Assembly (NCBI GenBank): GCA_963773065.1
Contig: CAVYZN010000019.1
Location: 14,247-78,246, forward strand
Source of the DNA: an uncultured Gammaproteobacteria bacterium
GTDB taxonomy: Bacteria; Pseudomonadota; Gammaproteobacteria; UBA9214
Direction of reading: 5' to 3'
DNA length: 64,000 bases
The notes beneath the pieces were generated by a model. It was not told where the DNA came from. It saw only the letters and a list, made by a program, of their open reading frames with translations, and did no database searches. Shown in pieces: positions 15,784 through 61,004 of the stretch (the stretch's first letter is position 1; each line of letters begins with the position of its first letter). The translations under genes and the position numbers were made by a program.

Positions 15784-17611
15784 GTGAATACTGACAGCCG
15801 CGAAGACGATCATCCGCCGCCGGCCGACCAGGCGCGCGAGCTGCTCGCGCGAGTCATCGCCAGGCTGGCGCAGCGCTACCGCGATGCCCCTCCGCCGTTG
15901 AGTACGGATGAGTTGGCCCGGCGCCTGGCGGCATTGCAGTTGGCCGACGCGGCGCTGCGCGATCTCGCCGCCCTGGACGGCCCGACCACGCGTCCGCTGC
16001 AGGTGGCCGTGATGGGGCCGACCCAGGTCGGCAAGAGCACCGTCGTCAACCTGCTGCTCGGCAAGCGCGTTGCCGAGGTGAGCCCGCTGGCAGGTTACAC
16101 CATCCACCCGCAGGGTTTCGCCCTCAACCCGCGGGATGCGAGCCTGGCATGGATCAAGCCCTTCTTCCCCGGCTGGGAATGCCGCGACGGCGCGGCGCTG
16201 ACCCGCGACCGGCTCGACTGTTATGCCCTGCGTACCCTCGGCGGCGACACGGCCGGCATGGCTCCCGATACGGTGATCTGGGATACGCCCGACTTCGACT
16301 CCTTCAAGGCCCACAGCTATCAACGCGGCGTGCTGGAAGTCGCCGCCCTCGCCGATGTGATCGTGCTGGTGGTGAGCAAGGAGAAGTACGCGGACCTGTC
16401 GGTGTGGAAAACCCTGCAGTTGCTGGAACCCCTGCGGCGGTCCCTGGTGGTGTGCCTGAACAAGACCAACGGAGACGCCCGGGAGCTGCTGGTAGCGGCG
16501 CTGCGGACCCGGCTCGCCGAACTGACGGCGGCGGCCGGCACCATCGATGTCATCGTCATACCCTACTGCCCCGACATCGATGCGTTCGCGGCCGCGGGCC
16601 GCCCGCCGGAGGCGGCCGAACTGCGCGCGGCGCTGCGCCGTGCGCTGGATGGCGTGGACCGCCGCGGGCGTGGCGCCGGCGTGGGGGCGCTGCTGCAACG
16701 CCACTGGACGGACTGGATGGCGCCGGTCACGATTGAACTGGCGGCGGCCGGAATCTGGGAGCAATCCATCGACGCGGCCATCGGCCAGGCGCTGACAGCC
16801 TACCGGGATGAGTTCCTGGATCACCCGCAACGCTTCGACACCTTTCGCCTGGCCATACTCGAACTCCTGCAACTGCTGGAATTGCCCGGTCTTGCCAAGT
16901 CCCTGACACGCATCCGCCAGGCGCTCACCTGGCCGGCCCGCCAGCTCTTCGATTCCCGGCGCATGAAGACCCTCACGGGGCGCCTGCGCGGCAAGGCGGC
17001 TGCATGACCTGCCCGGTGAGGAACTGATCCTGCGCGACCTGCTGGGGCAATTGCTCACCACGCTGTCGCGCGATGCCCTGCGCCGCGGCGCGCCGCAAGC
17101 GCCGGGCGCCGCATTCTGGCAGGCGCTCGGCCTGCGCCTCGCCGAACGGCAGGCGGACCTGACCGGACAATTCGCCGCGGCCGCCCACCGGCACCACCTC
17201 GACTTCCAACCGGAAATCGAGACCGCGGCTCACGAACTCTATGCCAACCTGCAGCAGAAACCCGCCCTGCTCAACACCCTGCGCGCGGCGCGCCTCACCA
17301 CCGACGCCGCTGCCATCGTTCTGGCCCTGAAAACCGGGGGCGTGGGGCTGAATGACCTGCTGTTCGCACCGGCGATGGTGTCGCTGACCTCCATGCTGAC
17401 CGAGGGCGCCCTCGGGTCTTACATGACGCAGGTCGCCGGCCGGCTGAAGCAGGCCCAGTATGCCGCCGTAGAGCGGCGGCTATTCCACGGCCCGGTACGG
17501 GAGGCGTTAAGCGCGCTGGCCGAAAACCTCGAGGCGCCCGGCCTGTTCGGCATCTCGCGGCCGGAATACGCGGCGGCGGAGCAGGCGCTCAAGGCGTGGC
17601 GGCATGACTGA
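15784..17611 (+). pseudogene. Dynamin-like/large GTPase 1 (~609 codons if joined), apparent frameshift near ~16990
   Basis: It has the P-loop GPTQVGKST, DTPDFDS and LNKTN. ORF 15784..17007 ends in ..RLRGKAAA*. The next frame is already open from ~16979 (..RLHDLPGEELILRDLLGQLLTTL..) and runs to 17611, overlapping the next gene by 8 nt. Two separate genes is the alternative reading. Confidence 0.5.
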
Positions 17612-19322
17612 GCGGATCTCCCAACTGCGCGAGCGGGTCGGCGCCTGGATCGCCCGCGCGCAGGCCATGGCCTGGCTCGGCGAGACGGAACTCAAGGCGC
17701 TGCAGCAGGTGGAACAGCGCACGCCGGCCGACCTGTTCACCCGGGCGCAGCCTGCCCGCCCCCTGGTCGTCGCCTTTTTCGGCGGCACCGGCGTGGGCAA
17801 GAGCAGCCTGCTCAACCGCCTCGCCGGACAAGCCATCGCCCGCGTCGGCGTGGAGCGCCCGACATCCCACGAGGTCACGGTCTATGTGCACGCGGCGGTG
17901 GAACTGGCCACCCTGGCGGAACACTTCTCCGTGAACCAGGTGCGCATCGCGCGGCATGCCGATGCGTCGCGGCGCGATGTCCTGTGGATCGACATGCCGG
18001 ATATCGACAGCACCGAACAGCGCAACCGGGAACTGGCGTTTGCCTGGCTCCCCCATGTCGACCTGCTGATCTACGTGGTCAGCCCCGAACGCTACCGCGA
18101 CGACATCGGCTGGCGGGTATTGCACCGGCGCGGCCACCGCCATGGCTGGATGTTCGTCATGAATCACTGGGACGAGGGCGCGACCGAACAGCAGGCGGAT
18201 CTGCTCGCGATACTGCACGAGGCCGGTTTTGCCGACCCGCTGGTGCTGCACACCTGTTGCGGCGGCGGAACGTGCCCGGATGACCAGTTCAACGAGTTGG
18301 AGGCCGCAATCCGGACCGTTCAGGCTCAGCATGGCCAGCAGGAACTCGAGCGGCTCGGACACCGTGCCCATTTGCAGGACGTGGCCGCGGTTCTGGAGGC
18401 GGCGCTGCGACGCCTCGGGGAGACGGCTGACTGGCGGGACATAGGGAGCGGTTTTCTGCGGGACTGGTCGCACGCGGCGGCGGCGATCGCGGACGGCATG
18501 ATCTGGCCCATCCAGGAGATCGCCGCGGAATTCGCCAGCCGCGACGCCAGTCTGCTCACGCGCTTGCTGGGGGAACGCCATGACACGGCGGCAGCGGGAA
18601 CGGAACGCTCGCGGGAAGCGCCGCCCGCGCCGCGCACGGCCAGGGAACGTGAGGCGGCAACCGCGCTCTGGGACCCCTGGGCGCAGGGCAAGCTGACCGA
18701 GGTCTGCGATACCCTGGAGATCGCCCTGCGGCGCAACGGGGTGGCCCCGCAACCGCTGCTCGCACGCCTGCAGCCGGTGACCGGCACCGCCAGTCAAACG
18801 GTTAATGAGGAACTGCAACAGTCATTGCGCCAGGGACTGGCACGTCCCGGCATGCCGTGGCAACGCGCCCTGCGCCGCATCACGGGCGCGGCGCTCAGTC
18901 TGCTGCCCATCGCGGCCCTGCTGTGGGTGTCATACCGGGTGATCACCGGTTTCCTGCAAGGCGCCGCCGGGCAGGCGGCCTATCTTGGCGCCGACTTCGC
19001 CATCAACAGCCTCCTGCTGGTGCTGGTCGCCTGGCTCCTGCCCTTATTGCTGCACCGCCGCCTCAAGCCCTCCACGGAAGCGACGGTGATACGCGCGCTG
19101 CGCACGGGTCTCGGAGTGGGGCTGGAGGAACTCAACGTGAGGGCGGAGGCGGCGTTCGCGGCGACCAGCGCGGAACGCGGCGCGTTGCTGGTTGAGGCAA
19201 ACAGGCTCCGCGATGATTTGGGTCGGTACAGCGGCGCGCCGCATCCCGCCCCCAGCGCGGCGGTCGCACGCCTGCTGGCGGTGCCGGATCACCCCGGATC
19301 TGCCAAACCGCGATCCATGTGA
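17604..19322 (+). CDS. Dynamin-like/large GTPase 2 with a C-terminal TM hairpin
   Basis: The ORF is 572 aa, with the P-loop GGTGVGKSS, DMPDIDS and NHWD. Its two hydrophobic helices are LSLLPIAALLWVSYRVITGF and INSLLLVLVAWLLPLLL. Its start overlaps the stop of the upstream GTPase. Confidence 0.65.
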   Translation: MTERISQLRERVGAWIARAQAMAWLGETELKALQQVEQRTPADLFTRAQPARPLVVAFFGGTGVGKSSLLNRLAGQAIARVGVERPTSHEVTVYVHAAVELATLAEHFSVNQVRIARHADASRRDVLWIDMPDIDSTEQRNRELAFAWLPHVDLLIYVVSPERYRDDIGWRVLHRRGHRHGWMFVMNHWDEGATEQQADLLAILHEAGFADPLVLHTCCGGGTCPDDQFNELEAAIRTVQAQHGQQELERLGHRAHLQDVAAVLEAALRRLGETADWRDIGSGFLRDWSHAAAAIADGMIWPIQEIAAEFASRDASLLTRLLGERHDTAAAGTERSREAPPAPRTAREREAATALWDPWAQGKLTEVCDTLEIALRRNGVAPQPLLARLQPVTGTASQTVNEELQQSLRQGLARPGMPWQRALRRITGAALSLLPIAALLWVSYRVITGFLQGAAGQAAYLGADFAINSLLLVLVAWLLPLLLHRRLKPSTEATVIRALRTGLGVGLEELNVRAEAAFAATSAERGALLVEANRLRDDLGRYSGAPHPAPSAAVARLLAVPDHPGSAKPRSM

Positions 19323-37784: not shown

Positions 37785-39476
37785 GTGGAAGCTGCCTGTT
37801 TTGATACCTATTATCGCTACGATAAACTCAGCCGGGTGCTGTACAACTACGCGGCGCGGCACCCCGGGCTGACCCGGCTGGAGAGCATCGGCAAGAGCTT
37901 CGAAGGCCGTGACATCTGGCTGGTCACCATCACCAACTTCGCGACCGGTGCGGACACGGACAAACCGGCGCTGTGGGTCGATGCCAACATCCACAGCGCG
38001 GAGTTGGTGGCCTCGATGGCCGCGCTGCGGCTCATCGAACACCTGCTGAGCGGGTATGCGGCGGACCCGGACGTGACGCGCTGTCTCGACAGCCGCGCCT
38101 TCTATATCTGCCCGCGGGCGAATCCGGACGGGGCCGAATGGGCGCTCGCGGACATCCCGAAACTGATCCGCTCCAGCACCCGCCCCTACCCGTTCGAGGA
38201 AACGCCCGTCGGCGGCCTCGTCACCGAGGACATCGACGGCGACGGGCGCATCCTGACCATGCGCATCACCGATCCCAACGGCCCCTGGAAGGCGTGCCCG
38301 CAGGAACCGCGGCTGCTGGTGCGACGCGACCCGACGGAAACCGGCGGCGTCTACTACCGGCTCCTGCCGGAAGGCCGGCTGGAAGACTACGACGGCCTCA
38401 CCATCGGCCTGCGGCCACTGCGGGAAAATCTCGACCTCAACCGCAACTTTCCCGGCCGCTGGCGCGGCGAGCACGAGCAGAAGGGGGCCGGTCACTACCC
38501 GACCTCCGAGCCCGAAGTGCATGCCCTGGTCGATTTCGTGGCCCGGCATCCAAATGTCTGCGCCGGCCTCGCCCTGCACTCCTACAGCGGCGTGCTGCTG
38601 CGCCCCTATTCCTACCAGGCGGACGAGGCCATGCCGGTCGAGGACCTGTGGACGTTTGAAAAAATCGGCGCCGCGGGCAGCGCGCTGACCGGCTACCCCG
38701 CCGTGTCCGCCTACCACGAGTTCCGCTATCACCCGCAGCAGGTCATCACCGGCGCAATGGATGACTGGCTCTATGAGGAACTCGGCCTGTTTGCATGGAC
38801 GGTGGAAATCTGGAGCCCGCAACATCAGGCGGGCATCGAGGATTACAAGTTCATCGACTGGTATCGCGAACATCCGCTCGCCGATGATCTCAAGCTGCTC
38901 GCCTGGAGCGACACCACGCTTTCGGGACAGGGCTATGTCGACTGGTATGCCTGGGACCATCCGCAACTGGGCGCCATCGAGCTGGGCGGCTGGAATCCGC
39001 TGTATTCGTTCTGGAACCCGCCGCCGCATCTGCTGCAACGGGAGGTCGAGCGGCTGCCCCGCTGGCTGGTCTGGCACAACCTGATCTCCCCGCGCCTGGA
39101 GATTCCGCGGTGCGGTTCGGAAGCGTTGTCACCCGACACCTACCGGGTGTGGTGCGTGGTGCAGAACAGCGGCTGGCTGCCGACCTACGTCACCCGGCAT
39201 GCCCGCGACAAGAACCTGCTGCGCGGCATCGTATGCGAGATCGAACTGCCGGAGGGGGCGACGCTGGTCGGCGACCCGCCGCGCCGGGTACTGGGGCAGC
39301 TCGAAGGCCGGGCCGGCAAATCCTCTTCGCCCTCGGGCTGGGCCGGTCAGGCCGCCGACGTGACCGATGATCGCCTCAAGGTGGAATGGCTGGTGCGCGC
39401 CGCCGCCGGCATGACGCTGCGCCTGCGCGCAAAACACGAGCGCGCGGGCGTCGCGGCGACAACCATAACTCTGTAA
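37785..39476 (+). CDS. M14-family zinc carboxypeptidase
   Basis: The ORF is 563 aa. It reads SIGKSFEGRDIWLVTIT and VDANIHSAELV (the HxxE zinc site), and has a later H in LALHSYSGVLLRPY. Confidence 0.8.
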   Translation: MEAACFDTYYRYDKLSRVLYNYAARHPGLTRLESIGKSFEGRDIWLVTITNFATGADTDKPALWVDANIHSAELVASMAALRLIEHLLSGYAADPDVTRCLDSRAFYICPRANPDGAEWALADIPKLIRSSTRPYPFEETPVGGLVTEDIDGDGRILTMRITDPNGPWKACPQEPRLLVRRDPTETGGVYYRLLPEGRLEDYDGLTIGLRPLRENLDLNRNFPGRWRGEHEQKGAGHYPTSEPEVHALVDFVARHPNVCAGLALHSYSGVLLRPYSYQADEAMPVEDLWTFEKIGAAGSALTGYPAVSAYHEFRYHPQQVITGAMDDWLYEELGLFAWTVEIWSPQHQAGIEDYKFIDWYREHPLADDLKLLAWSDTTLSGQGYVDWYAWDHPQLGAIELGGWNPLYSFWNPPPHLLQREVERLPRWLVWHNLISPRLEIPRCGSEALSPDTYRVWCVVQNSGWLPTYVTRHARDKNLLRGIVCEIELPEGATLVGDPPRRVLGQLEGRAGKSSSPSGWAGQAADVTDDRLKVEWLVRAAAGMTLRLRAKHERAGVAATTITL

Positions 39477-39623: not shown

Positions 39624-40310
39624 CTAATCTTCCGACTGCTGGCTGACGGCCTTGATCCCCTTGTAGGGAATGAACAGCCCGCAACCGAAATAGCGGCAGG
39701 ATCCCAGGCCGTGCTGCTGCAAGCGAAGAGATTCCTCCGCGGCGAGATCGGCCACCATCAGGCTGCGGGTGGTGAGCGGACCGTCCGTGGTGTTGATCAC
39801 GCCGATCCGGCCGGGCAGCATCTTGCGTACCAGGATGCCCAGCCGCTGCAACTGGTCCGCCGCCGCCTGCAGGAAACCGTCCTCGTCATCCGCGCTCAGC
39901 GCCACGTTACGGGAATAGAGCGTGGCGTTCGGCAGCAATGGTCTCACGACGGGTGCCGCGGTAACGACCAGGTGCTGTCCGCGCACATCGAGCCGTTGCC
40001 CGACCAGCGCTTTAGCGTCGTCCGCGCGGTGGCGCGGAACCCGGATCACCAGGCGCGTGCGCTTCGACAGATGCAGCAGATCGTCGGCGCCGGCGGGACG
40101 CTCCCAGCCATGCGCGGAGATCGCGACCTGGATCGGGTGCACGCCGGCGCCCTCCTCATCCGGCAACCAGGACAGCACCTGCGCAACCGCCTGGCCCAAC
40201 GCATAGTTGTGATCGACCGGCAGATAGTGGCAGTCGATCGGATAGACCAGATCGACCACGTCATCCGGCCAACTCACCGTGTCTTTCTTTTTACGTTCTT
40301 CCCAGTACAT
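39624..40310 (-). CDS. Cas6/Cmx6-like (type I-MYXAN Cas6 family) protein, orphan
   Basis: AGGA lies 7 nt upstream of the ATG at 40310. MYWEE..WPDDVVDLVYPIDCHYLPVDHNYAL...LHLSKRTRLVIRVP...TRSLMVADL..EESLRLQQHGLGSCRYFGCGLFIPYKGI matches my recollection of TIGR02807-type proteins, including the C-terminal Gly-rich RAMP loop. No profile search was run. Confidence 0.6.
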   Translation of the reverse strand: MYWEERKKKDTVSWPDDVVDLVYPIDCHYLPVDHNYALGQAVAQVLSWLPDEEGAGVHPIQVAISAHGWERPAGADDLLHLSKRTRLVIRVPRHRADDAKALVGQRLDVRGQHLVVTAAPVVRPLLPNATLYSRNVALSADDEDGFLQAAADQLQRLGILVRKMLPGRIGVINTTDGPLTTRSLMVADLAAEESLRLQQHGLGSCRYFGCGLFIPYKGIKAVSQQSED

Positions 40311-40343
40311 CGTCATTCCTGTTTCATAACACGCCCAGGCCGC

Positions 40344-43300
40344 CTAATCACTATCCCGCTGCCCCGCCGCGCCCGTGGATTCCGGCCCGGACCTGCCCGG
40401 CGGTTGGAAATGGACCGCATGCCACAGGCCGTGGGTGGTGAAACAGGTCCAGCCCCATTTCAGCCAGCGCAGCAGGGAGAGCGCCAGCCAGAGCGCCCAG
40501 GCGAGCATCAGGAAACGATAGAACAGGATCGGCACCGATACGATCCAGGCTTGCGGCAGGATCTCTCCGGCGCGGTCCTGGTACCAGTTCAGCGCATAGG
40601 CCGTCGACTCATTGCCCGCGACCTGCATCTCCGGCAGACCGAGCAGCCCCGTCTCGACGGCCGAATACAGCATCACCAGGGCAACCAGGGTCAACAGGCC
40701 AAGCCCGATCTGGGCGAGATTGAAAACTCTGGTGTCGCGCTCCGGTTCCAGCCTCGCCCGCAGTCCAAGCGCCAGCAGCCAGCCCACCACGATCAGGCCG
40801 ACCTGGATGGGGGACTGGCTGAGACCGATGCCGAGCAGAAACCAATGCCGCATTCTAAGCGGCGTCAGGCCGGTGCGCGCCAGCCCGAAGGACACCAGCA
40901 CGATGATCGCGATGACGGACCAGTACAAAACCGCCGGCCCCAGTCGCGGGCCACCGGCCCACAGCAGCCAGCGGTTCTCCCCCAGCGTAAGCGTGATCGA
41001 ACTGTTGACGCTGGGCGCACCCAGGTCCGCCGCGGGTGTCCTGAAGTAGTTATTGATACCCGCCGGTTCGCGCCATTGCAGCGCCACGTGCTGCGTACCC
41101 GGGGAAACCGGCAGGGTTACGGCGCGCCCCTCCTGGCGGATCGGCTGGGCCCGATCGTCGATGGTCACCGCCTGGAGCTGTGCTCCTTCCGGGAGTCGCA
41201 GCGTGTGCTGTCCTCCCTGGCTGCTGCGCAGGGTGAAACCGAGATCGACGTCGGTGGAGCGCATACCGGGGCTGACCTCGATCCGGCTGGCATCGATGGT
41301 CAGGGTCGGGCCTTCTCTCGCCTCGGGCCGCGTGATGGCAAGCCGTATCTCCTCCCACGGCCAGGGCCGCCATTGCGGCAACCAGGTGCTGTCGCGGTCC
41401 TGGTGGTGCGTCACGGCGATCCCGGAGGTGACGACATGCCAGACGGGGCTGATCTCCGCCTGCCACACCTCGCTCCAGGACAGGGTGTCCGGCGCGCGCA
41501 GGGTCAGCACCGGGCGCTTGTCGAGCCTTGAACTCCACCAGAAGACCTGTTGGCCGGCGGGCAGACTCACCTGCACCTGGCCGTCGTTCACGCGCACGCC
41601 TTCGCTGATCACCGCCTCGCCGTCGAGCAGCGGCACTTCCAGCACGATGGCGTTGTCGGCCGGCGACAGGCGCACGACGCGCGTCTCCACGCTCCAGTCC
41701 AGTCCGAGGTGCAGGGTGCGCTCGACCCGGACAAACGGCGGCAGCGTGCCCGGCTCCAGTGCGGACAATTCCCCGGCGCCTGCGCCGCTCACCCGTGTGA
41801 ATTGCAGCGGCCCATCCGCGATGCCACCCTCGTTCAGACCGGCAATGGCCCAACCTTCTGATTCGATCTCAATCCGGTGCGGTCTCAGCGGCAGCGGCAA
41901 CTGAAAGGTATCGCGCGGCGGCACGGGACCCGCCAGCGTGAGCTGGTGGCGGCCGCGCGGCAGTTCGATCCACAACTCGCCCGCGGGTGTGCGGAACAGG
42001 GCGGCTGCCGGCGCACCGTCCACCGCCACCTGCGCCGGAAGCCACTGCCGTGTATCGGCCGGCAAAACCACCGCGGTATCCTCCAGGGCATGTATCTCGA
42101 TGCGGGCCTGCAGCGACTTCTCGTTCAACACGATCCGCATGAGTGGAATCTGGGCGCAGGCGGGCAGGCATCGGGGGGGTTCCAGCAGGCGCGTCTTAAG
42201 CTCCTGCAGCAAACCGGTGTCCGGGTAATCAGCCTTGCCGTCGGGCGGCGCGAGCAGCAACAGGGGCGCAAGGAGCAGTGCACTCGCCACGGCCCCGGTC
42301 CGGGACGGCCAGTCGAATCCATGGCCCGGTTTCCAAGACAGCAGGCGTAACGCCAACGCACTCACCAGCAACACCCGCAGCAGGTTAAGCGCGAGGTTGA
42401 CCGGGGGTGAGAGCAGCGTGAGATTGAGGGTCTGTCCCCGCTCCACCGGCCCGTTCCAGCTCAGGCCGACGTACGTCCAGCGCCAGTCCGGCAGGCCCGG
42501 CCCGGTCTGTATCCTGGCCTTCGGGTCGATGCTCTCGAATACCGATTTGGCGTTCGACTTAACCTCCGACACGGCCGCCTCCCCCGACTCGGTCGCCATC
42601 TCCTTGCGCAGGACGGGTTCATTCCTGCCGGACGACGCAGGCGCCAGGGACTGCGCGGGCATCGCCTGATCGTAAACGGCCATCGGGCCGCCGGGGCTCT
42701 CCAACTGGGGGTAGATGCCGGTACGGACTTCATCAACCAGGAACGGCACCGCGATCACGGCGAGGGCCAGCAGGCCGAGATTGCGGTACCACATTACGGC
42801 GGCGCGGAAGCGGTTGGGTGGCAGAACCCGCAGCAGCGCGATGGCCGCCAGAATGTTGAGCCACACGAAGCGCGGCGCAGCCGGTTCGTGCCAGATGAGC
42901 GCCAGTGTCAGCAGCGCCAGCAATCCCCAGGGCCAGCCCCACAGACGCATCACGGCCAGGGCCCCCATCAACACCAGGAACAGATCCAGCAGGGTCCAAC
43001 GCTGCAGCCATGTCGTGGTGACCTGATCGACGCCGGTCGCCGCCAGCAGTTTCCAGCCGGGCGGCAGGTTCAGCGTGGCGCTCACCTGCTGGAAATCGTG
43101 GTCCCAGCCCGCGACCGGCAGCGTGCCGGTCGCGCCGTCATAACGACTGTCCGCGCTGAGGCGGATGGCGCCGCGGCGCACTTCGACGCCGGCCTCATTC
43201 GAGTCGGGCAGGGTCGTGATCAGTTGCGGCATGCCGTCGATGACGACCTGGCCGAGTTGGATGCCAGGCTCGGCCTCCAGGCGCCAGGCGCTCGTCATGC

Positions 43301-44423
43301 TGCCGGAAATCTCGTCCCGCAGCGTGTAGCCCTTGCCGTCGAAATCGAGCCACAGGGTGCGGCCAAGTACCAGCCGATCCGGCTCGGGCTCGGGATCGCC
43401 GCGCCGGATCACCTTGAAGCGCAGGGTATCATCCGGCAGGACGCGATAGGCCGGAAGGTTCCGCCAGTCCGTCGGCAAACGCGTCTGGCTGGGATCGACG
43501 GCCGCCAACCCTTCCAGCTCCACGAGGCGCAGGCTGTTGTTCGCCTCGAAGACCCACACCTCTTCTCCGGGCCACGGGGCGCCCTCGGCCGTGCGGGACA
43601 GTTCCGTGACATAGCCACTGGCGCGGGCGGCCACCTCCACCGTCCAGCGGCCCGGGCGCACCTGCACACGCAGCCGTCCGTCCGGTTCGAGTCGCGCCGG
43701 AATCTGGCTGGTGATGCGCAGCGGCAGAAAGCCTTCCAGCAGCGTCTTGCCGAGGATCACCTCACGCTGCACGCCCGAAACATCCATGTCGATGCGGGTC
43801 AGCACCTGCAGCGGGTTGTCATCGACGATGCGGCGAAAGACCTGGAGTTCGAGGCGGTCCCCGTCCTGTGTCTGATCACCGGCCTGCCGTCCGCGCAGCC
43901 ACAAGCGGCCATCCCCCTCCAGTTCGGGAAACGCCACCTCCGCCCCGTCGACGCTCAGCGCGAGCAGTCCCGAAGCCGGCGGTATCTGCAGCGTTTCCGG
44001 CAACCGCTCCCACAGGAACTGACCCTCCACGCGGTAGCCGCCCGCCGGCAACCGGAGGGCGGGCCTACCCTCGTCAAGGCTCACCAATCCGGGTTCGCCA
44101 TTGACCGTCACCGTCTGCGGCCAGTGTTCGGCATCGCCGGGAAGCTGGAGCCAGGATTCGGCATAGAGCTGCCACTGCTGCGTGAATCGCCCGCCCGTGT
44201 CGTCCAGTTTCAATTCCAGGCGGGCCGGCCAGGCGCAATGGCGCTGCGGCGCATTGTAGAGAAAGGGACACTGCGCCTGCGGCGTATCGTGCAATACCCA
44301 GTCCACCCATGGCCGCAGCGGCTCCGGGACCTGAACCGCCGGGACCTGAACCGCGGCGCCTGCACGAACGGACTGGAAAGGAATGCAGAGCAGAACCAGC
44401 GGAATGAGCCATCGGTGTCGCAT
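40344..44423 (-). CDS. Very large (~1,359 aa) polytopic membrane protein of unknown function
   Basis: This is an uninterrupted 4.08-kb frame. The ATG at 44423 gives a signal peptide, MRHRWLIPLVLLCIPFQSVRAGA. Two large soluble, beta-rich-looking regions are separated by a TM cluster (~res 560-660 and ~780-830), and a C-terminal 6-7-TM cluster follows. The ORF is open further upstream to 44666. Confidence 0.7.
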   Translation of the reverse strand: MRHRWLIPLVLLCIPFQSVRAGAAVQVPAVQVPEPLRPWVDWVLHDTPQAQCPFLYNAPQRHCAWPARLELKLDDTGGRFTQQWQLYAESWLQLPGDAEHWPQTVTVNGEPGLVSLDEGRPALRLPAGGYRVEGQFLWERLPETLQIPPASGLLALSVDGAEVAFPELEGDGRLWLRGRQAGDQTQDGDRLELQVFRRIVDDNPLQVLTRIDMDVSGVQREVILGKTLLEGFLPLRITSQIPARLEPDGRLRVQVRPGRWTVEVAARASGYVTELSRTAEGAPWPGEEVWVFEANNSLRLVELEGLAAVDPSQTRLPTDWRNLPAYRVLPDDTLRFKVIRRGDPEPEPDRLVLGRTLWLDFDGKGYTLRDEISGSMTSAWRLEAEPGIQLGQVVIDGMPQLITTLPDSNEAGVEVRRGAIRLSADSRYDGATGTLPVAGWDHDFQQVSATLNLPPGWKLLAATGVDQVTTTWLQRWTLLDLFLVLMGALAVMRLWGWPWGLLALLTLALIWHEPAAPRFVWLNILAAIALLRVLPPNRFRAAVMWYRNLGLLALAVIAVPFLVDEVRTGIYPQLESPGGPMAVYDQAMPAQSLAPASSGRNEPVLRKEMATESGEAAVSEVKSNAKSVFESIDPKARIQTGPGLPDWRWTYVGLSWNGPVERGQTLNLTLLSPPVNLALNLLRVLLVSALALRLLSWKPGHGFDWPSRTGAVASALLLAPLLLLAPPDGKADYPDTGLLQELKTRLLEPPRCLPACAQIPLMRIVLNEKSLQARIEIHALEDTAVVLPADTRQWLPAQVAVDGAPAAALFRTPAGELWIELPRGRHQLTLAGPVPPRDTFQLPLPLRPHRIEIESEGWAIAGLNEGGIADGPLQFTRVSGAGAGELSALEPGTLPPFVRVERTLHLGLDWSVETRVVRLSPADNAIVLEVPLLDGEAVISEGVRVNDGQVQVSLPAGQQVFWWSSRLDKRPVLTLRAPDTLSWSEVWQAEISPVWHVVTSGIAVTHHQDRDSTWLPQWRPWPWEEIRLAITRPEAREGPTLTIDASRIEVSPGMRSTDVDLGFTLRSSQGGQHTLRLPEGAQLQAVTIDDRAQPIRQEGRAVTLPVSPGTQHVALQWREPAGINNYFRTPAADLGAPSVNSSITLTLGENRWLLWAGGPRLGPAVLYWSVIAIIVLVSFGLARTGLTPLRMRHWFLLGIGLSQSPIQVGLIVVGWLLALGLRARLEPERDTRVFNLAQIGLGLLTLVALVMLYSAVETGLLGLPEMQVAGNESTAYALNWYQDRAGEILPQAWIVSVPILFYRFLMLAWALWLALSLLRWLKWGWTCFTTHGLWHAVHFQPPGRSGPESTGAAGQRDSD

Positions 44424-44894: not shown

Positions 44895-46421
44895 TTACTT
44901 TGCAGTGGCCAAAGCGGGAACGATACTGAATTCCGTGAGCGAGCAGGCGGCGGCGATGGCGGCGCGCCCCAAGCGCGTGAGGTAGTAACGATAAGTTCCG
45001 GTGACCCGTTTGATCACGCCGAGGGCAAGCAGCCGTTTCAGCTCTCGCGAGAGCGCAGCCGCCGAGGCGTGGGGCAGCAAAGCCATCAGATCGGCGCGCC
45101 GCAGACCGTGGATATTGAACTGCGGACGTTGCAGTGCCCGCAGCAGTTGCTGCTCGGTGCGCTTGAAGAAGTTCAGGCCCTTGATCGGCCGGTCGCTCTC
45201 GCACCGCTCGTCGGTCAGACGCGAGAGCGCGCGCTGTCCGGCGCTGTGATCGTCCAGCGCGGACAGATACTCCAGGTAGCGGCGATTGCATCCCAGGAGG
45301 ATCTGGCGCAGATCGATCAGGCTGTAGATGGATTTCTTCAGCGGCGCCAGTTGCCGCGTGCTGGGTCTATCTCGATGTTCCACCTTGCGGTGGTGCTTGA
45401 AGAAGGAGACGTCGTTGACGGTGGTTTCGATGCGCAGCACACGGGCGTATTTGTCGTACATCTTCACCTGAACCTTGCCCAGGCGATGTTTGATGCAGGT
45501 CCCTTCGATGCGGGTGGCAAAGCGGTTGCCGATCTCCTGCGCCAGCGGCGGGGTGATCTTCTTGCCGAGAAAGGTGGCAATCTGTTCGGCCTTCACCCCC
45601 AGCACCGCCTGGCGGGAGAGCTGTTCATACAGGGGCGCCAGCATCTCTTGGGAGCGGAACACCAGATCGGTAGCGTACTCCACCTGCAGCAGGCTCCAGT
45701 GATAGCCTTGCCCGAAGCTCTTGTGCACCGGGCAGCACTGGCGCGCGTAACGATCCAGGATGCGGTGCAGTTGCTCGGGCTTGAAGCCATCGGCCAACTG
45801 TTGCGCGCGCGCGAAGTCATCCAGGCGCACAAAGGCATTGTCCACCTGGGTAAAGCCGATGCGCCGGGTTTTAAGCTTCTGCGCCAGCCAACCATGGCCG
45901 TTGCAATAGAACTGCAATTTGAACGGGCACCAAGTCGGCACCCGCAGGTAACACAGGCCGACGAGCGGGTCGATGAAGTAAAAATAGTAGTGCAGGCATT
46001 TGCCCGTATCGGGCTTGAGGTAGGTCTTGCCGCTCGCCTTGTCATGCCAGGGCTTGTAGCTTTGACAGGCTTCCATCGCCGAAATGATGTGCACCAGACC
46101 CGGATGATCGCCGCGCCGCTCAAGCACCTTGGCGACCACATCTTCCTTGCGGATGTGGGCTTTGGCGATATGCTCGATCTCGATCCCCGCCGACTGCGCC
46201 AGCTCCTGCGCGCGCTCGCGGAGCGCCTCGCGCAAGGGCTCGGCAAACCGGGGATAGTCGAAAATCCGAATGCCCCTCGCGTACAAAAACGCCGTCATGC
46301 CCTGCGCATAGCAGGCCCCCGGCAACGTGCCCGTCATCACGATGCGGTCGTAACAGGAGAGCACCCCATGCAACCGATCTGCGTACCGTTCCACCAACGC
46401 CTGTGTCATCGTCGCCACCAC
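44895..46421 (-). CDS. Uncharacterised 508-aa protein with a C-terminal winged-helix-like segment
   Basis: The frame is intact. The conserved-looking core reads CLHYYFYFIDPLVGLCYLRVPTWCPFKLQFYCNGHGWLAQKL. The C-terminus LSRELKRLLALGVIKRVTGTYRYYLTRLGR looks MarR/wHTH-like. I recognise no catalytic motif. Confidence 0.55.
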   Translation of the reverse strand: MVATMTQALVERYADRLHGVLSCYDRIVMTGTLPGACYAQGMTAFLYARGIRIFDYPRFAEPLREALRERAQELAQSAGIEIEHIAKAHIRKEDVVAKVLERRGDHPGLVHIISAMEACQSYKPWHDKASGKTYLKPDTGKCLHYYFYFIDPLVGLCYLRVPTWCPFKLQFYCNGHGWLAQKLKTRRIGFTQVDNAFVRLDDFARAQQLADGFKPEQLHRILDRYARQCCPVHKSFGQGYHWSLLQVEYATDLVFRSQEMLAPLYEQLSRQAVLGVKAEQIATFLGKKITPPLAQEIGNRFATRIEGTCIKHRLGKVQVKMYDKYARVLRIETTVNDVSFFKHHRKVEHRDRPSTRQLAPLKKSIYSLIDLRQILLGCNRRYLEYLSALDDHSAGQRALSRLTDERCESDRPIKGLNFFKRTEQQLLRALQRPQFNIHGLRRADLMALLPHASAAALSRELKRLLALGVIKRVTGTYRYYLTRLGRAAIAAACSLTEFSIVPALATAK

Positions 46422-46486
46422 CGCTTAGCCCGTGCGTACAATACCTCTTCCTGTTTGGTTCCGGCTATGCCGGCTTAGGCGTCTCC

Positions 46487-47060
46487 ATGTCGGCACATAG
46501 TCCCGAAGTCGCAAAGAAGTTCTGCCAACTTTGCGATTGGCTTCTTCAGGTCTGGCAGATGCGGAAGTTCCTGTTCGACGAGAACACCGACGTGGCCGTT
46601 CTCAGAAAGCCGAGACATGCGCACTTCTTCTTTCGATTGCAAGAAGTCCTGCAAGAGAACTGGTTGCATCAGTTGGCCAAGCTTCACGACCCTGCCGTAC
46701 AAGGTGGCCCGAAGGGGCATATCAATCTCTCCGTTGAGTACATGATTGAATACGGCCAGTGGGACACTTCGATCAAAGCCGAGTTGCTTTCATTGCAGAC
46801 GGAGATGCTTCGTCTGGCAAAGCCCATTAAGTACGCACGCAACAAGGTCCTTTCGCACAACGATCTTGCTATCTTGCTGGCCGATCAAGAACTAGGTGCG
46901 TTTGATCCCGGAGAAGACGAGAATCTACTTCGAGGCACTTCGCTCTTTTGCTTCGGTTGTGTCGGAGCGGGTTCTTGGTGAACCATTCACGTACGATGAT
47001 CTGGTAGCGAACGATGTCGCCATGTTCATGCACGATTTTCTTCGTGGCGCCGACGCCTAA
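46487..47060 (+). pseudogene. AbiU2-like HEPN-domain protein, frameshifted near ~46915
   Basis: The ORF is AT-richer. LAKLHDPAVQGGPKGHINLSVEYMI and the Rx5H motif in YARNKVLSHNDL fit the HEPN/AbiU2 pattern. The tail ..RIYFEALRSFASVVSERVLGEPFTYDDLVANDVAMFMHDFLRGADA* lies in another frame and ends at the TAA at 47058-47060. Confidence 0.5.
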
Positions 47061-47063
47061 TCG

Positions 47064-47660
47064 GATAGCCGGGGGGTTCTCCCCCCCGGCCTCCACAACA
47101 CCCCGCATGCGGGTCCGCACGGGGCGTTTCCTTCAGAGTGAAAAGGACCGCCATTGACTGGCGACCATCAACGCTGGCTACGTGGCGAACCGCCAACGCC
47201 GTTTCACCCGCTCGGGTGTCCTACGGCCGTTGAGGCTCGCACGGCTCGCTCGTTGCCGAAGGTTCAGGCCTTCACCGTGTCCCACCCATTACGGTGGGCG
47301 TTTGGCTACTATGCCGTCTGCTGACTTCTGTCCCGTCACACCAAGCGTTACCGCAGGGCGCGCTGCTCGAGTCACGGTAGGGTTCGATGGTAATTCCAGT
47401 CCTTTCGGACTGGCCCTCAGTTCGACTCCCGTAGCGGCACGAGCCGCACGCGGGACAAATCTCCCCGGATAAGAACATGAACTTTCCGTGCACAACCGCC
47501 GCATTTACCCTATCCCCTGCACCTGACGGGTTTCGTCATCTTGTGCTGACTCACCCGGGGACTGAGCCTTCTATCTATGCGGTTTCTGTTCGTCGGCTCG
47601 CACCTTTGCGCTCGGGCTTCCTTCAGACATCCCCTCGCGGGTTTGCCCTTGCCGTTCCGA
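47064..47660. other. Hairpin-dense GC-rich non-coding block (candidate structured RNA or element terminus)
   Basis: No credible ORF lies here. The perfect or near-perfect hairpins include GCCGGGGGG-TTCT-CCCCCCCGGC (47068-47090), ACCCG-CATG-CGGGT, CCCACC-CATTAC-GGTGGG, CCAGTCC-TTTC-GGACTGG and GCGGC-ACGA-GCCGC. There is also a long-range TGTCCCG...CGGGACA pairing. Read on the minus strand, several loops become GNRA-type (GAAA, GAGA). Confidence 0.3.
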
Positions 47661-47665
47661 ATACG

Positions 47666-48140
47666 GCGGATGCGGATGACGACAACGACGGGCTCTCAGA
47701 CAGCCTGGAGGCCTCCCTCGGGACCAATCCCCTGCGTGCGGATACCGACGGCGACGGTCTGACGGACTATGACGAAGTCGCCTGGGGCGGCAATGCTTCA
47801 ATCTACACTCCGGGTGTGCATCCTCAACCCGCTGGCCGCCGACACGGACACCGACGGCTTCAGGGACGGCATGGAGTTCGCGGCGGGCTACAATCCGTTG
47901 AGCGCCGCGAGCTTCCCGGTATGGGGCGACATCAACGACGACCGGGTCGTCGACACGGCCGATGTGCTGCTCGCTACGCGTGCCGTCCTCGGGCTGGTGA
48001 CGCTGACCGGCGCCGAACTGGCGCGCGGCAACGTCGCGCCGCTCGTCAACGGAACGCCCCACCCGCCTGCCGTCGATGCCTTCGATCTCGCCGATCTCCT
48101 GCTGATCGAGCGCAAGGCGCTGGGTGAGGTTGCCTACTGA
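47666..48140 (+). pseudogene. 3' fragment of a secreted protein with thrombospondin type-3-like Ca-binding repeats and a dockerin-like C-terminus, frameshifted ~47815
   Basis: DADDDNDGLSDSLEASLGTNPLRADTDGDGLTDYDEV shifts frame into NPLAADTDTDGFRDGMEF...GDINDDRVVDTADVLLATRAVLG...LADLLLIERKALG. No N-terminal part or signal peptide lies upstream. Confidence 0.6.
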
Positions 48141-58845: not shown

Positions 58846-59527
58846 GCTCAGATGATGCTGCCTTCGAGCGGCCGGAAGCCGCCTTCCCGGTTCCGGCGCG
58901 CTTACCGGTCATCGATCATGACATAGTCGCGCCGCGCCGGACCCACGTACAACTGCCGCGGCCGGCCGATACGCAGATCTTCCTCGCCGATCATTTCCAT
59001 CCACTGGGCCACCCACCCCACCGTGCGGGCAATGGCGAACATCACCGTGAACATATTGGCGGGTATGCCCAGCGCCCGGTAGATGAGGCCGGAATAGAAA
59101 TCCACATTGGGATAGAGCTTGCGCTCGATGAAATAGTCATCATGCAGCGCGATCTCCTCCAGCCGCATCGCCAGCTCGACCATCGGGTCAGCCTTATTGC
59201 AGAGCTTTCCCAGCACCTCGTGGCACATCCTGCGGATGATGCGGGCGCGCGGATCGTAGTTCCTGTAGACCCGGTGCCCGAAACCCATGAGCAGGAAGGG
59301 ATCGTTCCGGTCCTTGGCGCGCGCCACATATCTTGCGGCATTCTTGACGTCGCCGATCTCTTTCAGCATGGCGAGCACGGCTTCATTCGCGCCCCCGTGC
59401 GCGGGACCCCAAAGCGCCGCGATGCCCGCCGCGATGCAGGCAAACGGGTTGGCGCCGGAACTGCCGGTGAGGCGCACGGTCGAGGTGCTGGCGTTCTGCT
59501 CATGGTCGATGTGCAGCATGAAAATCA

Positions 59528-59538
59528 GGTCCAGGGCC
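59528..59538. repeat. Left copy of the 11-bp direct repeat GGTCCAGGGCC flanking the gltA insertion
   Basis: An identical 11-mer lies at 60121-60131. Both correspond to the gltA codons for ..ALD.. Confidence 0.9.
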
Positions 59539-60120
<582 letters not shown>

Positions 60121-60131
60121 GGTCCAGGGCC
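60121..60131. repeat. Right copy of the 11-bp direct repeat GGTCCAGGGCC
   Basis: See 59528-59538. Confidence 0.9.
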
Positions 60132-61004
60132 TTTTCCGCCGCCGGGTCGAGCGCGTACCGTTCGCAGGGCACCGAGAACATCATGTTAAGCAGATTGCCG
60201 ACATAGCTCAGGCTGTTGTCGGGATAGACCTGCGGCTCGCCGATCGAGTGCTTGTAGCTCGCCGCCGCGATGGTCGGCATTTTCGCGATCAGGCGATGCG
60301 CGGCGATCTCGCGGTGCCTTGGGTTGTTGATATCGGTCGAGTCGTGGTAGAAGGCCGACAACGATCCCACCACGCCGACCATGATGGCCATCGGGTGGGC
60401 GTCGTGATAGAAGCCCTTGAAAAAGGCCTTCAATGCCTCATTGAGCATGGTGTGATGCAGGATGATGTCGTTGAAGCCCTTGAGCTGTGCGCGGTCCGGC
60501 AGCTCGCCGTAGAGCATCAGGTAGGCCACCTCGATGAAACTGCTGTGTTGCGCCAGTTGTTCGATGGGATAGCCGCGGTAATAGAGCAGACCCTGCTCGC
60601 CATCGAGATAGGTCAGCCGGCTATGACAGCTCGCGGTGGACAGGAAGCCCGGGTCATAGGTGAAATAGCCCGTGTCGCGGTAAAACCGGCCGATATCCAC
60701 GGCGTTCGGTCCCTGGGTGGATTTCCTGACCGGCAATTCGAACCGCCGGCCGGTGGCGTTGTCGATGACGGTGAGCGTGTCTTCGTTCATCTGTAATTAC
60801 CCTCCAGACCTGCCAGCGGTGATCATGGCTGGCAATCGATAGCTACTGAAGAACTACCAGACTGAAGAACTACCAGTAAGAGTATAGATTTCAGACCGTT
60901 TTCCCGCCTTCCAGGTTCACGGCGCCGGGTGCGGCCCGGGCATATCCAGCCGGTGGCGAGATCGGAATCGCCAGGCTGCGTATCACCCATCCCCGAGTCC
61001 ATCC

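Follow-up and report, generated by a model that had tools for sequence, protein, structure and literature searches.

Which system does a Cas6-like gene serve when no CRISPR array accompanies it and the gene of a giant membrane protein lies directly upstream? The question is raised by 64,000 nt of DNA from an uncultured gammaproteobacterium of the UBA9214 lineage (contig CAVYZN010000019.1, positions 14,247 to 78,246; this whole stretch is called the window below). The 228-aa Cas6-like protein, and the branch of the family to which it belongs, are called here Cas6L, and the 1,359-aa neighbor is called BIG; labels of the type L002 or L171 denote retrieved loci that were compared with the window. 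An earlier note on this DNA had taken the two genes for a dedicated module, with a Cas6 fold recruited to a giant envelope protein. We think it likely instead that Cas6L is a CRISPR-independent branch of Cas6 maintained by selection, that an operon beside the dsr genes is its ancestral setting, and that its adjacency to BIG is accidental. The elements concerned are the following:

39624..40310, minus strand: Cas6L gene, 228 aa, stop codon included (open reading frame [ORF] list, profile matches, and fold)
40311..40343, minus strand: BIG–Cas6L spacer, 33 nt, from the BIG stop codon TAG (40346-40344) to the ATG of Cas6L, with an AGGA at 40320-40317
40344..44423, minus strand: BIG gene, 1,359 aa, uninterrupted (ORF list), ending with the TAG at 40346-40344

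The enclosing ORF at 39624..40316 (minus strand) is confirmed in the ORF list of the window. The best start of Cas6L is the ATG at 40310, 6 nt past the AGGA, which gives the N-terminus MYWEE; with a second in-frame ATG, at 40316, as the start, the protein would be longer by two residues (MT). The 33-nt gap after the TAG of an uninterrupted gene, and the AGGA inside that gap, had been pointed out before and are both seen in the sequence.

Cas6L has the Cas6 fold but no adjacent CRISPR-Cas locus

The assignment of the 228-aa protein to the Cas6/Cmx6 family, first made from its layout, is borne out by profile searches and by the fold. Cas6L matches Pfam PF09559 (Cas6) from end to end (E value 2.2e-58, 197.8 bits with a cut-off of 26.7), NCBIfam TIGR02807 (cas6_cmx6, type I-MYXAN Cas6/Cmx6) with 125.1 bits for a cut-off of 98.85, and six Cas6 models of PADLOC. 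The glycine-rich C-terminal loop is GLGSCRYFGCGLFIP. The MYWEE start and the other motifs quoted in the earlier note are found, except that the window reads SWPDDVVDL where VPDDVVDL had been given.

In the AlphaFold model (AF2, 25 homologues), with a predicted local distance difference test (pLDDT) value of 87.3 and a predicted template modeling score of 0.83, and in the Foldseek comparisons, Cas6L has two tandem ferredoxin-like domains (RNA recognition motifs, RRM) and a C-terminal glycine-rich loop. All of the top 26 Foldseek matches in the PDB are Cas6/Cse3 structures. The best is the Cas6 subunit of the type I-B Cascade of a CRISPR-associated transposon (CAST), 8fcu_B/8fcj_B, with an E value of ~1e-16, a template modeling (TM) score of 0.74-0.79, and a root-mean-square deviation of 2.7 Å; next come Pyrococcus Cas6 and then Thermus and E. 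coli Cas6e. In a sequence search of the PDB, the CAST Cas6 chain is the only relative (E value 8.5e-13). Profile and structure searches both place Cas6L within the Cas6/RAMP (repeat-associated mysterious protein) fold.

The CAST I-B Cas6 (PDB 8FCJ/8FCU, chain B) shares with Cas6L the Pfam family, the fold, 25-26% identity, a G-x-G...CG-x-F-x-P loop, His58, and Arg90/Arg134. It differs by Asn34, Gln84, and Ser143, where Cas6L has His34, Arg84, and Glu143, and only Cas6L has the N-terminal MxW-x-E motif and the G-W-x-R-P insert (W69-R71-P72). Unlike the genes of type I-B Cas6, those of Cas6L are found without a CRISPR array or a cas operon. The stand-alone Cas6 enzymes (Pyrococcus furiosus, 3PKM/3I4H; Thermus Cas6e/Cse3, 2Y8W) have the same double ferredoxin-like (RRM) architecture (Foldseek E values of 1e-6 to 1e-8), but with ~10-14% identity and TM scores of 0.44-0.60, and their substrates are CRISPR repeats. 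They share with Cas6L a histidine early in the first RRM, which is where the catalytic histidine of many Cas6 enzymes stands.

Neither Tandem Repeats Finder nor Rfam nor a k-mer array scan detected a CRISPR array in the window, and the Cas models of PADLOC gave no match among 43 further ORFs of the window, with the small ORFs scanned in part; the array scans and PADLOC agree in this with the earlier reading of the sequence. The k-mer array scan revealed no CRISPR-like array in 171 related loci. At none of 146 unique loci does an array or a cas gene lie within 8-10 kb of Cas6L, and the gene tables of L006-L012, L171, L247, and L248 list no cas gene or array. Cas6L belongs to no CRISPR-Cas locus in the window or in the 146 related loci. 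By its context it is not a CRISPR-associated protein, despite its Pfam Cas6 sequence and its fold, and the suggestion that a Cas6 fold is used here outside CRISPR is a credible one.

Could Cas6L still be an ordinary displaced cas6, with a CRISPR-Cas locus beyond the window whose CRISPR RNA (crRNA) it processes in trans? Its score lies above the equivalog cut-off of TIGR02807, close relatives are named "type I-MYXAN CRISPR-associated protein Cas6/Cmx6" in public records, and type III systems do borrow a Cas6 supplied in trans (PMC12669027). However, arrays and cas genes are lacking within 8-10 kb at the 146 unique loci and also in the annotated relatives, Cas6L has an invariant signature of its own and a TIGR02807 score well below that of a true I-B Cas6, and its conserved neighbors are genes of sulfur metabolism (see below). 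We judge a displaced cas6 very improbable.

The names in public records follow from the scores. With TIGR02807 the CAST Cas6 obtains 189 bits and the members of Cas6L 66-136 bits, straddling the cut-off of 98.85 bits, hence the "type I-MYXAN" label. By its residues and its surroundings, Cas6L is a distinct CRISPR-free subfamily of Cas6/Cmx6 and not an equivalog of Cmx6.

The "equivalog" cut-off of TIGR02807 (98.85 bits) itself admits many CRISPR-free Cas6-like proteins (101-136 bits).

The usual neighbors of Cas6L are genes of sulfur oxidation

Homologues of Cas6L fall into 654 clusters in a word-indexed search; among representatives of clusters at 50% identity, 1,006 match at E≤1e-3 and 136 at E≤1e-30. 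Two overlapping scans of species-representative genomes gave 468 and 572 confirmed matches. The hosts are sulfur oxidizers: Acidiferrobacterales, Sulfuricaulis, Thiogranum, Chromatiales (including Allochromatium palmeri), Ectothiorhodospiraceae, and Thiohalomonas, with Thiomargarita, Marithrix, Parabeggiatoa, "Muproteobacteria," and some metagenome-assembled genomes (MAGs) labeled Betaproteobacteria as further hosts. In the 150 best cluster representatives the conserved residues are W3, D33-H34, W48, H58, G68-W69-x-R71-P72, R84, R90, R134, E143, and the G-rich loop; at His34, His58, and Arg71/84/90/134 there is little or no variation across the subfamily.

In the typical arrangement, dsrC...dsrB-dsrA is followed, in divergent orientation, by a TauD-like gene, a 70-aa gene, in some loci a gene for a 233-aa helical protein, Cas6L, a DsrC-like gene, and in some loci a rhodanese gene. 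The operon was observed in ~8 kb around the Cas6-like genes of L006, L008, L010, L014-L090, and L173-L246; in Allochromatium palmeri (L049), the 70-aa gene, the 233-aa gene, and Cas6L lie next to dsrA. Partners were counted at 140 unique distant loci (37-54% identity), the denominators being the loci with enough flanking sequence:

70-aa gene upstream of Cas6L: 128 of 134 distant loci
DsrC-like gene downstream of Cas6L: 119 of 129
dsrA within 5 kb of Cas6L: 89 of 99
TauD-like gene near Cas6L: 104 of 124
233-aa gene near Cas6L: 71 of 136

This arrangement spans Chromatiales, Acidiferrobacterales, Thiotrichales, and MAGs labeled Betaproteobacteria, so that shared ancestry within one narrow taxon is unlikely to be the cause of the synteny. 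In the large sulfur bacteria (L238, L241, L244, and L246), dsrAB is not adjacent and the 70-aa gene still precedes Cas6L, which makes it the partner found most constantly. No Pfam or NCBIfam family matches the 70-aa or the 233-aa protein. The DsrC-like neighbor matches PF04358 and TIGR03342, and the sequence of its C-terminal arm is devoid of both of the cysteines that functional DsrC/TusE proteins carry there.

The TauD-like gene, which heads the Cas6L operon in those 104 of 124 loci, has the same position as a known gene, dsrQ, a name that reportedly goes back to Lenk et al. 2012. As far as the text on dsrQ goes, the gene at this position lies divergent from dsrAB in sulfur oxidizers, and neither the 70-aa gene nor a Cas6-like gene is mentioned in that text (PMC7596348). 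In the searchable literature, subscription papers being outside its scope, no description of a dsr-linked or CRISPR-free Cas6 was found. The usual partners of Cas6L are the 70-aa protein, the Cys-less DsrC-like protein, dsrQ, and dsrAB, not BIG.

In the Acidiferrobacterales/Sulfuricaulis group (L006, 10688-10783; L018, L047, L081, and relatives), the spacer between Cas6L and the DsrC-like gene contains TTGGAT-17-TATCAT, a promoter of the sigma-70 type; the DsrC-like gene therefore probably has its own promoter.

The window copy is out of context and kept

None of these partners accompanies Cas6L in the window. In tblastn searches no dsrQ-like, 70-aa, 233-aa, or DsrC-like gene was found in the 64 kb or at the loci of the close clade, and no dsrAB was found in the 64 kb. 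Profile hidden Markov models of the 70-aa, 233-aa, DsrC-like, and TauD-like proteins (built from 70-210 sequences), run against the six-frame ORFs of the window and of close relatives, gave no match even at E≤10.

The gene itself is well preserved. The frame is unbroken not only in the window but also in eleven other sequences of the close clade (seven loci and four database proteins). The pairwise ratio of nonsynonymous to synonymous substitution rates (dN/dS) is 0.25-0.37 against relatives, with dS up to 0.63. Of 43 positions with a conservation of 85% or higher across 221 distant members of the subfamily, the window keeps 40, the changes being P47S, N67H, and H216Y. The window Cas6L is intact and, as these comparisons indicate, under purifying selection.

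A decaying remnant, that is, a formerly dsr-linked gene that has lost its operon and its function, would fit the absence of the usual partners from the window and the close-clade loci even at E≤10, the deletions found on both sides of Cas6L (see below), and a dN/dS of ~0.3. It does not fit the intact frame in the window and the eleven close-clade sequences, the 40 conserved residues, a dN/dS clearly below 1 at dS up to 0.63, or the ribosome-binding site (RBS) that has been retained; we consider decay improbable.

BIG is a conserved envelope protein with its own distribution

Searches of Pfam, NCBIfam, and PADLOC returned no family match for BIG. From hydropathy and the AlphaFold model (AF2, covering residues 25-1224 with a mean pLDDT of 77), the protein is predicted to consist of a signal peptide, a beta-rich region at ~25-475, about four transmembrane helices, and, past a disordered loop, another beta-rich region at ~730-1160 with four further transmembrane helices after it. 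The parts predicted to face the cytoplasm are loops at residues ~568-670 and the C-terminal tail. This agrees with what had been read from the sequence alone, namely a signal peptide, two periplasmic-looking regions, two transmembrane clusters, and no assignable motif. Conserved pairs of cysteines open each of the beta-sandwich arrays, and the transmembrane clusters are conserved too.

There are more than 2,400 homologues of ~1,350 aa, with 96-100% coverage and 49-85% identity among the 120 matches listed, and 560 matches in species-representative genomes; the family shares homology over its full length and a common topology. Hosts include Methylobacter, Methylomonas, Oceanisphaera, Zobellella, Thiomargarita, and many uncultured Gammaproteobacteria. 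With Foldseek the BIG model finds generic beta-sandwiches only (ribophorin I/OST1, an integrin, an aminopeptidase domain). The luminal domain of ribophorin I/OST1 and other beta-sandwich ectodomains reach a local Foldseek probability of 1.0 to parts of the periplasmic regions, but with TM scores of 0.1-0.23 and 8-12% identity, values from which no functional inference is drawn. None of the sequence or structure matches of BIG links it to RNA or to Cas6. BIG would be a conserved inner-membrane protein with two periplasmic beta-sandwich arrays, unrelated to Cas6L.

An internal duplication of BIG was considered and rejected (BLASTP of the N-terminal against the C-terminal half, E value 0.18, not significant). 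Just past the signal peptide, a perfect 15-nt tandem duplication at 44324-44354 (minus strand) yields the repeated peptide VQVPA-VQVPE.

The 33-nt gap is the product of a deletion

The close relatives of the window show what preceded the present arrangement:

L002, L012, L247, and L248 (Cas6L 78-81% identical to the window): BIG, the gene of a 101-aa protein with a transmembrane helix and a coiled-coil, 110-300 nt, Cas6L
L001 and L013 (Cas6L 80-86% identical): 101-aa gene at a contig start, with gaps of 62 and 112 nt to Cas6L
L171 and L172 (Cas6L 75% identical, M14 peptidase 84%): two divergent S8 peptidase genes, a 550-nt intergenic region, Cas6L
101-aa gene between BIG and Cas6L: L012, 9586-9891; L002, 5743-6045; L247, 9396-9701; L248, 9420-9725

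The 101-aa protein, with its single transmembrane helix and Met/Glu-rich coiled-coil, is present in all close relatives that have BIG; its gene is absent from distant BIG loci and deleted in the window. No BIG or 101-aa gene occurs within 10 kb at L171 or L172. When the DNA is aligned with that of L001, L002, L012, and L013, the window lacks ~0.5 kb, in which the relatives have the 101-aa gene and the greater part of the stretch that precedes Cas6L; where the window has 33 nt, the relatives carry ~0.45-0.65 kb. The junction in the window lies around GGGCGTG (40336-40330), and in the relatives motifs of the GCGTG type (GGGCGTG, AGGCGTG, GAGCGTG) are present at both edges of the deleted segment, which indicates a microhomology-mediated deletion. 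The 33-nt spacing is seen in the window only, not in relatives, and, being the product of a deletion, it is not evidence for a module. No promoter- or terminator-like site was found in the gap by a scan of 39.3-45 kb whose results were at chance level overall, and Cas6L is for that reason probably dependent on read-through from BIG.

A dedicated functional module of Cas6L and BIG has in its favor that the two genes are on the same strand, 33 nt apart, with no terminator-like site between them, and that four related contigs (L002, L012, L247, L248) likewise carry BIG upstream. Conservation of the pair in related genomes had been named beforehand among the points on which the module would stand or fall, and the adjacency fails in divergent genomes. 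Outside the close clade, none of 81 BIG loci has a Cas6-like neighbor by tblastn (67 of the 81 have at least 1 kb of downstream sequence), and three annotated BIG loci at 51-54% identity have unrelated neighbors and no Cas6. Conversely, BIG is found at none of the 140 unique Cas6-like loci of 37-54% identity. Two MAGs have both genes on separate contigs (Granulosicoccaceae Bin_64, L096 and L089; ES_Gamma_036, L104 and L239). BIG is also common in the methanotrophs Methylobacter and Methylomonas, genera that are not among the retrieved Cas6L loci. With L171 and L172 lacking BIG, the genes of the relatives separated by the 101-aa gene and 110-300 nt, and the short gap explained by a deletion particular to the window, the module proposed earlier is not supported, and we give it hardly any credence. 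BIG probably lies beside Cas6L through an accident of local genome history.

A history of the locus and a possible function of Cas6L

The explanation that we favor runs as follows. The ancestral and typical setting of Cas6L would be an operon divergent from dsrAB, with dsrQ, the 70-aa gene, in some cases the 233-aa gene, the gene of the Cys-less DsrC-like protein, and in some cases a rhodanese gene. The lineage of the window would have left this dsr setting while retaining the conserved core of the subfamily, and, in one narrow lineage, BIG and the 101-aa membrane-protein gene would have come to lie upstream of Cas6L. In the window, a microhomology deletion of ~0.5 kb would then have removed the 101-aa gene and most of the upstream region of Cas6L, leaving the 33-nt gap, and Cas6L would now be transcribed through read-through from BIG.

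As for function, Cas6L may act in trans as an RNA-binding protein specific for a sequence or a structure. It is possibly a metal-independent endoribonuclease in which His34 and His58 would serve in the active site and the RNA would be held by the arginines together with the G-rich loop; the likely target is some transcript of the cell that has to do with sulfur oxidation, not a CRISPR repeat.

Several points weigh against this reading. All negative results on CRISPR and dsr in the source genome cover the 64 kb of the window, and a CRISPR or dsr locus may lie elsewhere in that genome. In the sub-lineage of at least 78% identity, four contigs consistently show BIG, the 101-aa gene, and Cas6L in this order, and there could be some co-regulation there. 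The dN/dS of ~0.3 is only moderately low. The catalytic role of His34 and His58 is predicted from position and conservation only. When the spacers that separate Cas6L from the DsrC-like gene were searched for the RNA target, no shared, repeat-like hairpin was found, the one conserved motif being the sigma-70 promoter; 46 aligned regions upstream of dsrA share only the RBS; and in single-sequence folds of the Cas6L flanks of the close clade, visual inspection disclosed nothing shared.

Cas6L could alternatively be a non-catalytic adaptor that binds RNA or protein, for example, a regulator that acts at the dsr promoter region jointly with the Cys-less DsrC-like protein and the 70-aa protein. Regulatory roles have been proposed for Cys-less DsrC-like proteins, and the neighbor of Cas6L is one that lacks both functional cysteines. 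The closest solved relative, the CAST Cas6, has an Asn at the position of His34, and no cleavable hairpin was found in the Cas6L–DsrC-like spacers or upstream of dsrA. Yet the two histidines and many arginines are invariant across the subfamily, a pattern no less expected of an active site than of a binding surface. The adaptor or regulator role is a serious alternative, although on balance we find it rather unlikely.

The use of CRISPR-Cas components in other functions has precedents in type IV systems and Tn7-like CASTs, for which the term "repeated exaptation" has been used (PMC12669027). Like these, Cas6L is a Cas-derived protein used beyond adaptive immunity; unlike these, which retain a crRNA and several Cas subunits, it is a single protein among metabolic genes, and no guide RNA locus was found. 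Tentatively, and as something possible rather than probable, we propose that an ancient exaptation turned Cas6L into a factor of oxidative sulfur metabolism that processes RNA or regulates, independently of CRISPR and in partnership with the 70-aa protein and the DsrC-like protein devoid of Cys, and that in the window it is uncoupled from dsr, remains under selection, and is transcriptionally fused to an envelope-protein gene.

Local synteny and other features of the window

The lineage has a stable gene order: S8 peptidases, BIG and the 101-aa gene where present, Cas6L, variable genes, an M14 peptidase, a GNAT-C39-like gene, a DUF155 gene, a 470-aa ORF, and an S8 peptidase. The window keeps this order, apart from deletions to either side of Cas6L. 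The features flanking the pair are:

37785..39476, plus strand: M14 zinc carboxypeptidase gene (PF00246, E value 4.7e-50), convergent with Cas6L
44895..47644: lower-GC insert upstream of BIG, with the 508-aa ORF, the AbiU2-type HEPN gene, and the group II intron RNA fragments
44895-46421, minus strand: 508-aa ORF with no family match, adjoining the AbiU2-type gene
46403-46981, plus strand: AbiU2-type HEPN gene (PF18734, E value 2e-9)
47267-47644, minus strand: group II intron RNA domains (Rfam RF02001, 126 bits; RF01998, 61 bits)

Copies of the M14 gene that are 83-84% identical lie 0.8-6.4 kb from Cas6L in L002, L013, L012, and L171, versus 154 nt in the window; the M14 gene is a syntenic anchor of the lineage and not a member of a module. 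The GC content is 0.55-0.63 at 44.9-56 kb versus 0.65-0.69 across Cas6L and BIG, and an AT-richer islet with a defense-type gene (the AbiU2-type HEPN gene) does adjoin the pair, as described earlier. In L012, L171, L247, and L248, S8 peptidase genes occupy the position of the insert.

No long reverse-transcriptase ORF is found near the group II intron fragments. An ORF with TSP3 repeats at 47477-48127 (plus strand) overlaps them and could be what is left of the S8 peptidase gene that the relatives carry at this position.

Farther away, a tract of ~560 nt made almost entirely of G and A on the plus strand (59564-60122, GC skew +0.49) lies within the citrate synthase gene (58902-60790, minus strand). 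The ORF at 59525-60790 corresponds to positions 1-171 of Pfam Citrate_synt and then passes into low complexity, and the ORF at 58902-59519 corresponds to positions 175-357; the G/A tract that splits gltA looks like a sequencing or assembly artifact or an odd insertion. After an 886-aa GT2 glycosyltransferase gene, two adjacent GTPase genes on the plus strand (15784-17007 and 17604-19322; MMR_HSR1/Dynamin_N, with weak PADLOC matches to LeoA) resemble a bacterial dynamin-like pair. Matches to PADLOC mad2/mad3 are also present among the ORFs of the window.

Implications for the Cas6 family and for sulfur oxidizers

For the window, the result is a corrective one: The pair of a Cas6 and a giant membrane protein is the by-product of a deletion and not a system to pursue. 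For the annotation of genomes, the gene that pipelines label as a type I-MYXAN CRISPR-associated Cas6/Cmx6 is present at 146 or more of the loci retrieved, and in several hundred matches among species-representative genomes, with no array found within 8-10 kb of it. The cut-off of TIGR02807 fails to separate the two groups, and counting the CRISPR-free Cas6L genes inflates surveys of CRISPR-Cas.

A broader fact than the window pair, moderately interesting and testable, is a branch of Cas6 tied to dsr in well over a hundred sulfur-oxidizing bacteria. That Cas6L stands so consistently in the dsrQ operon next to dsrAB suggests that dissimilatory sulfur oxidation has a component acting at the level of RNA, of which no description was found in the searchable literature. 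If the exaptation proposed above is true, Cas6L would represent a widespread housekeeping use of a Cas6 endoribonuclease beyond immunity and would be a candidate for a post-transcriptional regulator of dsr.

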